Below are positions 2,824 to 8,493 of a stretch of 9,706 nt of DNA, one piece after another (the stretch's first letter is position 1; each line of letters begins with the position of its first letter). The DNA is taken from the IMG/VR virus record IMGVR_UViG_2703718673_000017; one strand, given 5' to 3'. Made by a program: the position numbers and the translations under genes. The DNA comes from a virus. Taxonomy: Duplodnaviria > Heunggongvirae > Uroviricota > Caudoviricetes. The notes under the pieces were generated by a model that saw nothing but the letters and a program-made list of their open reading frames with translations, did not search any database and was not told the DNA's origin.

Positions 2824-3024
2824 GGAAATAAAGGGATAACGATGATAGTTTGAGAAAAACAGAAATAACACTTTTGTGGCAAAGCATGGTGCCGGGTGCC
2901 TCCCGGTGAATTCAGTACCAGCACCTGAATCCGCGATTATCCCATATACCTGGTTGCTGATTGCCCCTCCGCACAGGGGGATTCGCCATGCAGTAGTATT
3001 TTTAATAAACAGTAAACAAAAAAA

Positions 3025-3422
3025 TCAAGCATTATGCAGGCTGTTTCTTTTTATCACCGGCCACAGCAATACCACAATGCCGCAGACCAGCCCCCCATCC
3101 GCCAGCACCGACATGATTCTNNNNNNNNNNNNNNNNNNNNNNNNNNNNNNNNNNNNNNNNNNNNNNNNNNNNNNNNNNNNNNNNNNNNNNNNNNNNNNNN
3201 NNNNNNNNNNNNNNNNNNNNNNNNNNNNNNNNNNNNNNNNNNNNNNNNNNNNNNNNNNNTAATTTCTGACGTAAACGCGGACAGCGCTGGCTGATTACGC
3301 AGTACCTGTTCGATCTTCGCTTTCTAGGAAGCCTCACATTCACCATCTGCACAGGCCACCAGGTATGCGGCGTTAATCACCGCCTGTGCCAGATCGCGTT
3401 TCTCAAACTTTCCTTTTTCCGG
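3025..3422 (-). pseudogene. Degraded cargo gene at the Q-proximal moron site: TerB-like fragment with in-frame amber, split by the N gap, plus a C-terminal hydrophobic fragment
   Basis: Minus frame 3422..3327 encodes PEKGKFEKRDLAQAVINAAYLVACADGECEAS, then in-frame TAG (3326..3324), then KAKIEQVLRNQPALSAFTSEI up to the gap. No ATG in this frame after the upstream TAA (3425..3423). The A..A.ADG...E.AKIE pattern resembles TerB-family domains. After the gap, 3120..3025 encodes ...IMSVLADGGLVCGIVVLLWPVIKRNSLHNA*. The frame relationship across the gap cannot be determined. Confidence 0.3.
3121..3259. other. Assembly gap (139 N)
   Basis: Run of n characters. Track ORFs spanning it (translated as X) are artefacts. 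Confidence 0.99.
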
Positions 3423-6235: not shown

Positions 6236-6261
6236 GAAAAAACAAAACCCGCCGAAGCGGG
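6236..6261 (-). terminator. Rho-independent terminator at the 3' end of the hok mRNA
   Basis: Minus-strand RNA aacccgcuucggcggguuuuguuuuuu: 5-bp GC stem with a UUCG-type tetraloop, then a U-rich run (plus A-run 6237-6247). Confidence 0.6.
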
Positions 6262-6331
6262 TTAAGTGCGGGTGCGTTGAGGATGCCTGACACATCAGCG
6301 GTGGCGAGGGATTTCTCCCCCGCCTGGTCTC

Positions 6332-6487
6332 TTACTCCTCAGGTTCGTAAGCTGTGAAGACAGCGACCTCCGTCTGGCCGGTTCGGATTCGTACCTCGCA
6401 GAGGTCTTTCCTCGTTACCAGTGCCGTCACTATGACGGTTAAACAGATGACGATCAGGGCGATTAACATCGCCTTTTGCTGCTTCAT
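6332..6487 (-). CDS. hok: Hok-family type I toxin (HokC/Gef, HokD/RelF-like), 51 aa
   Basis: MKQQKAMLIALIVICLTVIVTALVTRKDLCEVRIRTGQTEVAVFTAYEPEE matches the Hok/Gef family (compare Gef MKQHKAMIVALIVICITAVVAALVTRKDLCEVHIRTGQTEVAVFTAYESE). SD AAGGAG 8 nt upstream of ATG 6487..6485. Confidence 0.9.
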   Translation of the reverse strand: MKQQKAMLIALIVICLTVIVTALVTRKDLCEVRIRTGQTEVAVFTAYEPEE

Positions 6488-6544
6488 AACCTGCTTCTCC
6501 TTGCCTTTCGGCGCGTAAGAGGCTAACCTACGTTTGTGAAGCAT
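6332..6544 (-). CDS. mok: Mok-like in-frame N-terminally extended reading frame overlapping hok (70 aa)
   Basis: Track ORF with ATG 6544..6542, extending hok by 19 codons in the same frame, as in chromosomal mokC/hokC. GAGG lies 9 nt upstream. Confidence 0.6.
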   Translation of the reverse strand: MLHKRRLASYAPKGKEKQVMKQQKAMLIALIVICLTVIVTALVTRKDLCEVRIRTGQTEVAVFTAYEPEE

Positions 6545-6610
6545 AGATTGGGCCTCAGATTAATGTTAAGCGTCTTGCAGGACGCGTAATGTTAACTGGG
6601 GCTTTTCTCT
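6540..6610 (+). ncRNA. sok: Putative Sok-like antisense RNA (boundaries approximate)
   Basis: Plus strand, antisense to the mok translation-initiation region. Candidate promoters: TTGTGA (6534-6539) with ATTAAT (6559-6564), or TTGCCT (6501-6506) with TAACCT (6524-6529). A 7-bp closing stem (6552-6558 with 6596-6602) is followed by a T-rich run 6603-6610. Ends are inferred by analogy to R1 hok/sok and are not verified. Confidence 0.35.
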
Positions 6611-6662
6611 GTCTGCCTTACGGTGGCATGCCCGAGGCAGACAGCCTCAAGCACCCGCAGCA

Positions 6663-6870: not shown

Positions 6871-6948
6871 TTACCCCCACCGACAAATAACATATACTAG
6901 AAAAGCAATAGCTATAGCAACGCCTGCAAATGCATCTGGCCGGCTCAT
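6871..6948 (-). CDS. Small hydrophobic peptide, 25 aa, single predicted TM helix (not in ORF track)
   Basis: ATG 6948..6946 overlaps the stop of the 190-aa gene (ATGA). SD GGGGGAGAA (6960..6952). Translation MSRPDAFAGVAIAIAFLVYVICRWG, stop TAA 6873..6871. Confidence 0.4.
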   Translation of the reverse strand: MSRPDAFAGVAIAIAFLVYVICRWG

Positions 6949-7517
6949 TGGTTCTCCCCCTGTGTCGCTTCTACTGCGATCTGACTGGCGTATTCGTTAA
7001 TGGTAACGATAAGTTCTTGCTCGGCCTCATCCAGACAACTACCGATACCTCGCCTGTCCACTTCAGAAGCATCGAAATCTGCACGAAGCCTGGCGACCTT
7101 CAGGATTGCGGACAACACCTCATCAGGGATTGCCGGAGAGTTGGTTGACGTTTCCGAGATTATCCGAAAATTATTGGTTGACGAACCCTTATTTTCCCGA
7201 AAGTTTCCAGCCTGAAGCATGGCGGCGCGGTGACACCAGATAATCCAGCCAAGCGCCATATCCCATGCCATGTATTCTCTATCGCCATTTTTTGCTCTGC
7301 GGCGATCTACAGATTCCCCGAAACGCTTCTCCATAAATAATTCATAGGCTGCCCGTTCATCCGATACTGATGCCAGTGATGCCAGTGATGCCAGTGCAAT
7401 TTTTAATGCGGTAAGCATGTTGTTTTGATCTTCATCGAGTCCGAACGGTATTTCATCCCGTGATGACTCAATTCCGGTAATCGTGTTCTGTAGCCATTCT
7501 TTGGTTAATTCAGTCAT
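6945..7517 (-). CDS. Hypothetical protein, 190 aa, with internal ASL tandem repeat
   Basis: Track ORF with ATG start. No family recognised. Contains the 9-bp tandem repeat encoding ALASLASLASVS. Preceded by a 126-nt AT-rich intergenic region with an SD-hairpin-AUG arrangement. Confidence 0.7.
   Translation of the reverse strand: MTELTKEWLQNTITGIESSRDEIPFGLDEDQNNMLTALKIALASLASLASVSDERAAYELFMEKRFGESVDRRRAKNGDREYMAWDMALGWIIWCHRAAMLQAGNFRENKGSSTNNFRIISETSTNSPAIPDEVLSAILKVARLRADFDASEVDRRGIGSCLDEAEQELIVTINEYASQIAVEATQGENQ
7368..7394. repeat. Perfect 9-bp tandem repeat (tgatgccag x3) inside the 190-aa CDS
   Basis: Plus strand 7368-7376, 7377-7385 and 7386-7394 are identical 9-mers. In frame on the minus strand, encoding an (ASL)n tract. 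Confidence 0.85.
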
Positions 7518-7643
7518 TTTTCACTACCGCCCTTTCGGGCGGTCTCCTGATGTTCTGAGGGTGCAGGAATCCCTCCGGTTAAGGATTTAATAAAAATCAT
7601 TTCTGATTTAAATTTTCAGTGTTTAGTTGTTGGTTTATAGCCT

Positions 7644-7955
7644 TTATGCTTCGGCCTTATTTCTCAGCCATACACAAACAGGACCATCTTCGGTGTCATG
7701 TATCGAACCGATAAACCATCCCTCACCTTCTGGTCGCTCAGGTTCCCATGCTGAAATATCAGGGCCATCTGCGTCCAGATTAAAATCATCTTCATCCATA
7801 CTACGGATAGCCCACTGAAGATTATTTTTCTCCATCCAGGCGTTAAACTCTTCCGTTGAAATATATTCCCGACCATCACAGAATTTTTCATATTCAGGAT
7901 GCGTCCAGCAGCCATATTCATTACGTTCCACTGGCATTTCTTTAATTACGCTCAT
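7644..7955 (-). CDS. Hypothetical phage protein, 103 aa, acidic
   Basis: Track ORF. ATG 7955..7953 overlaps the stop of the upstream 62-aa gene (ATGA). G-rich SD (GGGGGG) 3 nt upstream. No confident family assignment. Confidence 0.65.
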   Translation of the reverse strand: MSVIKEMPVERNEYGCWTHPEYEKFCDGREYISTEEFNAWMEKNNLQWAIRSMDEDDFNLDADGPDISAWEPERPEGEGWFIGSIHDTEDGPVCVWLRNKAEA

Positions 7956-8140
7956 TTACCCCCCTTATTTAATTTTCTACGACACTTTTTACAATCATCT
8001 GGACTTTCGAATGTATCCGGCTCACGCTCATTGCCAAAATACATCCACCCACCGCAAATACTTGTTATTTCACCTTCAGCAAAATAATGATGTTTTTTCG
8101 CCATAAGTGGCCTTGCCCAGCCCGGATTCGTTTTACTCAC
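7952..8140 (-). CDS. Hypothetical small protein, 62 aa, possible Cys-rich zinc-binding motif (SICGGW ... DDCKKC)
   Basis: Track ORF. Start codon is GTG (8140..8138), supported by SD AAGGAGG with a 6-nt spacer; it overlaps the stop of the 118-aa gene (GTGA). Confidence 0.55.
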   Translation of the reverse strand: MSKTNPGWARPLMAKKHHYFAEGEITSICGGWMYFGNEREPDTFESPDDCKKCRRKLNKGGK

Positions 8141-8493
8141 TTGTTGCCTCCTTTGCGAAGCTCTGCGACTAACTCGTCACATATGTGCGTCAAAGAGCAA
8201 AGTTTGATTGCTGGATGTTCGCGCACCATCTCCACACCCTGCGCCCGCAATTCTGCCAGAAAAGCGTAGGGGTCAGTTTTTTCACTGTGGTACATGGCAT
8301 CATAGATAATCATTGCAGCGACACCTGCCTGTCCTGCATCTGTGACGGATATATGCTCAAGGGCTACGGCCATTGCGTGTTTCAACCTCTCATTTTCCAC
8401 CTCAAGCACCACACGATTAGCCTCCAGCTCTTCTATGCGTTTTTTTGCTGCTCCCAGCTCAACACGCAGCTCCTGATAGTTAATCTCGCTCAT
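8137..8493 (-). CDS. Hypothetical phage protein, 118 aa, N-terminal coiled-coil-like segment
   Basis: Track ORF. ATG 8493..8491 overlaps the stop of the 74-aa gene (ATGA). SD GGAGGAAGGAGA upstream. N-terminus has heptad-like charge pattern (ELRVELGAAKKRIEELEANRVVLEVENERLKHA). Confidence 0.7.
   Translation of the reverse strand: MSEINYQELRVELGAAKKRIEELEANRVVLEVENERLKHAMAVALEHISVTDAGQAGVAAMIIYDAMYHSEKTDPYAFLAELRAQGVEMVREHPAIKLCSLTHICDELVAELRKGGNK

Follow-up and report, generated by a model that had tools for sequence, protein, structure and literature searches.

Textbooks treat split ribosome binding sites as a curiosity of a few genes, above all genes 38 and 25 of phage T4. For the gene 38 initiation region, a contraction of the spacing from 22 to 5 nt was reportedly described by Gold in 1988. 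The SD and AUG of genes 38 and 25 are separated by 22 and 27 nt, distances that RNA structure brings to 5 and 11 nt, and mutations that destabilise the structure lower initiation (PMC3014915). At both sites the structure is reported to be required if initiation is to be efficient (PMC3014915; PMC7297116), and the terms "split" and "noncontiguous" are in use for ribosome binding sites of this kind (PMC7297116). The gene 25 site, at the gene 26-25 junction, is the subject of Nivinskas et al. 1999 and Malys and Nivinskas 2009, both taken here from a review (PMC3014915). Beyond T4, our literature search for split ribosome binding sites in prophages returned only work on rpmE/thrS. We read the gene 25 and gene 38 sites directly from the T4 genome (NC_000866) and set them beside a site in the window, by which we mean the whole 9,706-nt stretch of DNA that was analysed:

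T4 gene 25: SD GAGG, a gap of 1 nt, an 18-nt hairpin (7 bp, 4-nt loop), then 8 nt to the AUG.
T4 gene 38: SD AAGGAG directly against a GC stem capped by a UUCG tetraloop, with the AUG 4 nt past the stem.
Window site: SD AGGAG, a gap of 0 nt, an 18-nt hairpin (7 bp, GAAA loop), then 8 nt to the AUG.

A sequence-only reading of this DNA had likened the window site to T4 genes 38 and 25. The T4 genome bears this out, with the gap, hairpin size, and spacer of gene 25 being nearly identical to those found here.

As a lambdoid prophage of E. coli O157:H7, the window has its genes on the minus strand, in the early-right (pR) operon. These comprise the repressor, cro, and O- and P-like replication genes, followed by a DUF1627 gene and then by a chain of small overlapping genes, the last of which encodes 103 amino acids. 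Downstream of the 190-aa gene that the site precedes are hok/sok, DUF968, RusA, and Q. Genes of the chain overlap by 4 nt and have strong canonical SDs 2-7 nt from their starts. From the stop codon of the 103-aa gene to the AUG at 7517 there are 126 nt, a distance that excludes translational coupling as the source of ribosomes and means that the 190-aa gene initiates de novo. PGAP/RefSeq places the start at the same ATG in an O157:H7 genome with full identity to a 221-nt query made up mostly of the intergenic region, and the MTELTKE-type N-terminus is conserved in homologues placed behind a canonical SD. The 190-aa protein matches PHROG families of unknown function and no others. Coupling through a 29-codon upstream ORF (ATG at 7599, with a TGA that overlaps the AUG as AUGA) was rejected because this ORF is not conserved: most relatives have ACG in place of its ATG, one has GTG, and a frameshifting indel is present in one. 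The features of the locus are as follows:

7644..7955, minus strand: the upstream 103-aa gene (ORF list), at the end of the overlapping, coupled chain.
7557..7590, minus strand: the 5' part of the long cassette, AAUCCUUAACC followed by a weak hairpin, GAGGG 7575-7571 / CCCUC 7561-7557.
7544..7548, minus strand: SD AGGAG, read from the sequence, 26 nt 5' of the AUG by linear count.
7526..7543, minus strand: hairpin ACCGCCC-GAAA-GGGCGGU, 18 nt, with a 7-bp stem and a GNRA tetraloop.
7543-7537, 7536-7533, and 7532-7526, minus strand: 5' arm, GAAA loop, and 3' arm of that hairpin.
7518..7525, minus strand: A-rich single-stranded spacer AGUGAAAA, 8 nt from the hairpin to the AUG.
7517-7515, minus strand: AUG of the 190-aa gene, opening the ORF 6945-7517.
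6945..7517, minus strand: the 190-aa gene (ORF list), of unknown function, with an Ead/Ea22-like N-terminus, MTELTKE.

Read directly, minus-strand positions 7548-7515 are AGGAG-A-CCGCCC-GAAA-GGGCGG-U-AGUGAAAA-AUG. The sequence-only reading had placed AGGAGA at 7548-7543, CCGCCC at 7542-7537, GAAA at 7536-7533, and GGGCGG at 7532-7527, and all of these coordinates are correct. Its 6-bp hairpin core is likewise exact, and the extent of the stem needed revision: on folding, A7543 and U7526 form a seventh pair, which makes the stem 7 bp and leaves 8 nt before the AUG. The nucleotides UAGUGAAAA do lie at 7526-7518, directly before the AUG at 7517, and the residual spacing is 8 nt instead of the 9 nt first counted, since U7526 is paired. 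The gap between the SD (7548-7544) and the 18-nt hairpin is 0 nt. By linear count, the 26 nt from SD to AUG is beyond the limit of ∼15 nt used for the split class.

This layout suggested to us that the site works as a split (noncontiguous, hairpin-bridged) ribosome binding site, a reading that we consider fairly probable. The 30S subunit would pair with AGGAG(A/G) just 5' of a permanently folded 7-bp GAAA hairpin; the closed hairpin would loop out 18 nt and bring an AUG that is 26 nt away to about 8 nt from the SD, whereby the AUG would be able to reach the P site. That ribosomes actually initiate in this way we infer from the anatomy, stability, accessibility, conservation, and spacing constraint of the site and from the T4 geometry.

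Folding and duplex energies are consistent with such a site. The folding energy of the hairpin is -12.4 kcal/mol for its 16-nt core and -14.1 kcal/mol for all 18 nt. The hairpin forms with a pair probability of 1.0 for each of the six G-C pairs and 0.77-0.84 for the seventh pair in contexts of 120-260 nt. It is thus too stable to serve as a switch, which points to a constitutive architecture. Structure-dependent initiation, as the sequence-only reading proposed it, is in keeping with the energetics, the conservation described below, and the T4 geometry; the attached condition, translation only when the hairpin forms, seems not to apply at a pair probability of 1.0, and the arrangement is likely constitutive. 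Against the 3' end of 16S rRNA, the upstream SD AGGAGA forms a duplex of -7.4 kcal/mol, and the AGGAGG carried by most relatives reaches -9.7 kcal/mol. There is no SD inside the spacer AGUGAAAA, whose own duplex with the anti-SD comes to -0.4 kcal/mol (+1.6 to -1.2 kcal/mol for the SD-less spacers of the junction variants). The 3' arm AAGGGCGGU, if unfolded, would form an anti-SD duplex of -8.1 kcal/mol. Because 12.4-14.4 kcal/mol must first be spent on opening the stem, the balance for use of this arm is unfavourable by 4-6 kcal/mol, and this closer SD is thermodynamically disfavoured. Accessibility depends on the context folded. The AUG is unpaired with a probability of 0.8-0.86 in two shorter contexts and 0.22 in a 261-nt context, and the spacer with a probability of 0.6 in the two shorter ones. 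The upstream SD is unpaired with a probability of only about 0.3-0.35 in the long context, where its partners are weak pyrimidine tracts, pairings that a 30S subunit could displace.

We gauged chance expectation with a composite definition: a 6-bp hairpin having five or more G-C pairs, preceded at no more than 7 nt by an SD-like tetramer and followed after 3-12 nt by an ATG. The window holds a single such SD-hairpin-AUG arrangement. Dinucleotide shuffles of the window produced the composite in 2 of 300 cases and the motif itself in 0 of 200. When 1.09 Mb of DNA from related prophages was scanned in a generic way, the cassette was the sole SD-hairpin-AUG arrangement, two terminator-like false positives aside. 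The whole-window scan against Rfam 15 had no match at the site, and the hits of a permissive scan of 7480-7680 stayed at chance level (E above 2). No description of the hairpin sequence was found in the searchable literature.

The unit is widespread. The 221-nt query has matches in 898 of 5,426 complete E. coli genomes, at 1-5 places in each and roughly 1,650 places in all, and in many of these genomes the homology ends a few bases past the hairpin and a different gene comes next. From IMG/VR we gathered about 280 copies, chosen by an upstream anchor or by two downstream proteins, which represent 68 distinct 124-nt contexts. In nearly all of them GGAG(G/A) sits directly against CCGCCC-GAAA-GGGCGG, and an ATG comes after a further 6-9 nt of A/U-rich spacer; the four exceptions are a P1-like phage copy with a truncated downstream ORF and three recombinant loci (L179 type), described below. 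GGAG is invariant in all but these four copies, and the base 5' of it varies (A/C/G). At least 12 different A/U-rich junction sequences follow GGGCGG, with 13 spacer variants tallied, and the ATG behind the unit opens at least six unrelated families: Ead-like MT/AELTKE proteins (138-288 aa), DUF4014, DUF7167, MQDIKE, MLTLKHF, and MGITKE. Closure of the hairpin leaves a residual spacing of 8 nt at the window site, and the SD-less junction variants range over 5-9 nt. The MGITKE junction, the sole one with an SD of its own (GGAG), also has the longest spacer, 11 nt. The element is absent next to distant relatives of the upstream 103-aa gene (Atlantibacter, Pseudescherichia, Dryocola) and from the Rac and Qin prophages of E. 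coli K-12. We note that all copies come from closely related E. coli phages, and their conservation thus partly reflects shared ancestry. As a separate observation on annotation, the PGAP start of one frameshifted copy is wrong, with the ORF read through the hairpin.

Judged by this distribution, the element is not private to the 190-aa gene and reads as a widespread portable module at a mosaic junction. The SD-hairpin unit would serve there as an initiation module for whichever SD-less gene is joined 6-9 nt downstream. Homologues of the downstream genes that lack the hairpin fit this picture: DUF4014 homologues (loci L281 and L277) have AAGGAG 6 nt from the ATG, and Ead-like genes have AAGGA 9 nt upstream, from which it follows that these gene families normally use an SD. 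In the cassette context, the sole SD that appears to be available is the one upstream of the stem. A broader possibility, which we offer as speculative and rather improbable, is that the unit is both a portable adaptor and the recombination junction of a lambdoid gene-swapping hotspot, such that any incoming SD-less ORF placed 6-9 nt past the stem could be expressed, and that all accessory genes linked to the cassette might come under the joint control of one factor, through the hairpin or through the SD-complementary UUCCUG/UCCU tracts in the long cassette.

The unit also seems separable from the long cassette. A bare UCAGGAGG-hairpin unit without the upstream 50 nt is found right behind the stop codon of another gene in ArgO145 and in many viral contigs, and the 5' part of the long cassette (7557..7590) appears to be dispensable for the split site. 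This 5' part is homologous to the intergenic region and canonical SD ahead of ArgO145 gp16, and it is probably the relic of the intergenic region and SD of a deleted gene. Its weak hairpin (7575-7557) tolerates disruptive changes and, given this tolerance and its origin in a relic SD region, was left out of the mechanism.

The variants of the stem suggest that the hairpin is maintained at the RNA level. Frequent variants are C-to-U changes at positions 4 and 6 of the 5' arm, which keep G.U pairs in the sense RNA, and an A/G variation at the base that pairs with U7526, which keeps an A-U or a G.U pair. The position-6 change is found ahead of four different downstream genes; the position-4 change is found in six contexts ahead of DUF7167 and, combined with position 6, ahead of MLTLKHF. 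A position-2 C-to-U change, also compatible with G.U pairing, is confined to a single locus, and the loop variant GAAA-to-GGAA stays in the GNRA class. Each disruptive variant (C6-to-A, C2-to-G, UAAA loop) was seen once. Pairing holds for 96% of the cells in the stem alignment, one-sided variation affects four pairs (C-G to U.G, A-U to G.U), and no two-sided, compensatory change is present among the aligned copies. A hairpin of the antisense strand is unlikely, because there the same substitutions would give A.C mismatches, and a DNA-level palindrome or protein site is unlikely as well, the frequent one-arm C-to-T changes breaking the DNA symmetry while keeping the RNA G.U pairs. A single case further in favour of the split site is the P1-like phage copy, in which the downstream ORF is truncated to 13 codons and the SD has decayed to GGGATG with the hairpin intact.

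Initiation might instead be independent of the SD, with recruitment of the S1 type to the unstructured A/U-rich spacer and start region. The upstream GGAG would then be incidental, and the hairpin would be a structural insulator, an mRNA stabiliser, or a processing barrier that frees the start codon. The spacer and first codons are indeed A-rich and, in the two shorter contexts, mostly unpaired, and a tight distance between hairpin and AUG would suit an insulator too. GNRA-capped GC hairpins are, in addition, classic nuclease barriers. Against this mechanism, GGAG is invariant amid varying flanking bases; the strong canonical SDs of the hairpin-less homologues mark these genes as normally SD-dependent, the neighbouring operon genes use strong SDs, and in the P1-like copy the SD decayed where the ORF is dead. 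We regard SD-independent initiation as unlikely.

Alternatively, the real SD would be the 3' arm AAGGGCGGU itself, 6-9 nt from the AUG and masked by a hairpin that acts as a translational repressor, the genes being expressed weakly or when the stem is opened by, e.g., a ribosome, a helicase, or a protein. When unfolded, this arm has an ideal linear spacing as well as the anti-SD duplex given above. The 3' arm GGGCGG is invariant in the about 280 copies, with the 5' arm variable; two targeted IMG/VR scans contained no fully compensated U-A variants; and three L179-type loci have kept the gene although recombination put other sequence in place of the SD and of the two leading bases of the 5' arm. 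A sequence-specific role of the 3' arm, for example as a cryptic SD or a protein site, would also fit this invariance. The same invariance is nevertheless expected from wobble rules alone, because G-to-A changes in this arm give C.A mismatches. Set against a masked SD are further the cost of opening a stem whose pair probability is 1.0, the lack of a conserved ORF crossing the hairpin in the long context, and the lack of a promoter inside or next to the hairpin that would yield transcripts without the 5' arm; a strong, invariant GGAG abutting the stem would also be left unexplained. These points make a masked SD quite unlikely, and the split ribosome binding site remains our preferred reading.

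A transcriptional role for the hairpin, as a terminator or attenuator placed between the replication and late-regulator genes or as a nut/boxB-like antitermination site, with the proximity to the start codon being secondary, is very improbable, since it would neither hold the ATG at 6-9 nt nor strip the genes of their own SDs. In its favour we counted that lambda has terminators in the equivalent P-to-Q interval and that the stem GCCC/GGGC with its GAAA loop may resemble lambda boxB, GCCCUGAAAAAGGGC. On the other side, all 13 spacer variants are A-rich after the stem and lack a U tract on both strands, the antisense tail reading UCUCCUGAUG; a terminator scan of 6900-8200 gave no site, and there is no Rfam match. 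The nut/boxB identity was rejected for want of a boxA: the DNA out to about 650 nt from the hairpin has no match to a GCUCUUUA-like consensus, and across the whole window such matches are fewer than expected by chance. The 4-nt GAAA loop also differs from the GNRA-like pentaloop of boxB. A nut site sits just past an early promoter; the position here is well downstream of the replication genes, with copies at other operon positions, some of them in early-left regions directly behind stop codons.

If confirmed, the split ribosome binding site described here would add a third natural case to the two of T4, this time in temperate instead of virulent phages, and one that is reusable across many unrelated genes, which bears on how newly acquired mosaic genes come to be expressed. 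The candidate element is carried by up to about one-sixth of complete E. coli genomes, often in several copies, O157:H7 prophages included. Models for gene-start prediction presume a fixed SD spacing, and hairpin-bridged sites therefore matter for annotation; the SD-hairpin arrangement also has a bearing on how insulated synthetic ribosome binding sites are designed.

Among the known systems, the window site combines the geometry of T4 gene 25 with the stem style of T4 gene 38. As in gene 25, the hairpin lies wholly between the SD and the AUG, the spacer is without an SD, and the linear spacing is close (27 nt in T4, 26 nt here). The two have no sequence homology, and their stems differ: that of T4 is A/U-rich and weak, at about -7.4 kcal/mol, and that of the window is G/C-rich, has a GNRA loop, and folds at -12 to -14 kcal/mol. 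The gene 25 site serves one gene in T-even phages, in contrast to the prophage unit, which precedes at least six genes at a mosaic junction of temperate lambdoid phages; the T4 site is proven experimentally, and the window site is known from sequence and folding. With gene 38 it shares an SD that abuts a G/C-rich stem with an extra-stable tetraloop (UUCG in T4, GAAA here), followed by a short A/U-rich spacer and the AUG. Unlike in the window, the predicted gene 38 stem overlaps the 3' end of the SD, the residual spacing is 4-5 nt (8 nt in the window, 5-9 nt in its relatives), and a single gene is served; here too, there is no sequence homology. The two validated T4 cases lie on either side of the 5-9 nt found among the junction variants.

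Two further systems share parts of this architecture. In E. coli thrS (Sacerdot et al. 1998, cited in PMC7297116), a stable hairpin also interrupts the ribosome-binding region, but the SD is at a normal distance from the AUG, and the hairpin separates it from an upstream single-stranded enhancer; that hairpin is the operator for ThrRS autoregulation, whereas a regulator is neither known nor implied for the prophage site. The hairpins of T4 e, soc, and I-TevI likewise hold an SD-like purine run inside an initiation-region hairpin, which here is the 3' arm. In those genes, however, the masked SD is the sole one, and late promoters inside the structure yield unmasked transcripts, whereas the prophage site has a strong free SD outside the stem and no internal promoter was detected.

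Two tracts upstream of the SD region (7544-7549, minus strand) are complementary to it in sequence:
Window 7564-7569, minus strand: SD-complementary tract.
Window 7582-7585, minus strand: SD-complementary tract.
The loop of the weak upstream hairpin includes UUCCUG, complementary to CAGGAG in the SD region on the minus strand, and pairing of this loop with the SD would create an H-type pseudoknot in which the SD is masked. In the MFE fold, AGGA is paired with UCCU at window 7585-7582 on the minus strand. The common variants of the loop, UUUCUG and UUCUUG, retain wobble compatibility with the SD region. The complementarity of UUCCUG and UCCU to the SD may be a by-product of a composition that is both SD-like and anti-SD-like.

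Short reading frames run across the SD and hairpin in both contexts of the cassette:
Window 7514-7599, minus strand: 29-codon ORF, ATG at 7599.
L130 (phage ArgO145) 1466-1495: 9-codon mini-ORF AUG-SGGRPKGR-stop, also present at many IMG/VR loci, such as L254.
The 29-codon ORF contains both elements, and its TGA overlaps the AUG of the 190-aa gene as AUGA. Its own ATG is replaced by ACG in most relatives, one relative carries a frameshifting indel, and the ORF is probably not a gene. The mini-ORF belongs to the minimal context, where its start overlaps the stop of the upstream gene as UAAUG; it covers the SD and the hairpin and ends 3-4 nt upstream of the next AUG. Whatever the junction variant, its frame meets a stop (UAA, UAG, or UGA) at codon 1 or 3 past the stem. 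A termination-reinitiation relay via this mini-ORF is conceivable in the minimal context; in the long context, the mini-ORF frame lacks a start codon.

Several copies of the cassette have diverged:
L131 (P1-like phage vB_EcoM-Ro157c2YLVW) 1198-1260: copy with an intact hairpin and a decayed SD, UCGGGAUG.
L179 (three IMG/VR loci) 360-405: recombinant copy, GGGGAUCCCUCAGGCCCGAAAGGGCGG.
L132 (vB_EcoS-666R9 and two sister phages) 1200-1262: copy with changed loop and stem.
At L131, the Ead-like ORF that follows is cut down to 13 codons, and the next annotated gene has its own GGAG 9 nt upstream. In the recombinant, other sequence stands in place of the SD and of bases 1 and 2 of the 5′ arm, a 4-bp hairpin is left, and the DUF7167 gene has an in-frame GTG 36 nt upstream of its usual ATG. 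The L132 copy has a poly-G replacement within the upstream hairpin's loop and a C-to-G change that puts a G·G mismatch in the main stem; these changes could be either real divergence or sequencing error.

One annotated start lies upstream of the SD:
L006 (E. coli 2014C-3011) 914-1162: DUF4014 gene as annotated by PGAP.
This start is an ATC codon whose reading frame crosses the hairpin, and a 1-nt deletion within an A run shifts the frame past the true ATG. Because an unusual RBS and a frameshift are combined here, the PGAP start is an annotation artefact.

The cassette is otherwise limited to phages of E. coli, and Actinobacillus is an odd host for it: match H72 (PP818812.1, 11347-11419) carries it at 94.5% identity in a record named Actinobacillus phage vB_Apl-pPE4. 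This copy resembles those of E. coli prophages.

Other features of the window are as follows:
3121-3259: run of 139 N.
6242-6323, minus strand: isrK-like Rfam match.
2851-3017, minus strand: STnc100 Rfam match.
6332-6544, minus strand: hok/gef ORF.
6482-6656, minus strand: sok Rfam match.
No tRNA was found in the window by ARAGORN; in L002, a related O157 prophage, the place of the N run is taken by a tRNA-Ile gene and two genes for tRNA-Arg, which lie downstream of Q. The isrK-like match is weak and sub-threshold (27 bits). STnc100 (94 bits) lies upstream of the gene for a 645-aa NanS-like esterase, and sok (114.9 bits) overlaps the start of the hok/gef ORF.
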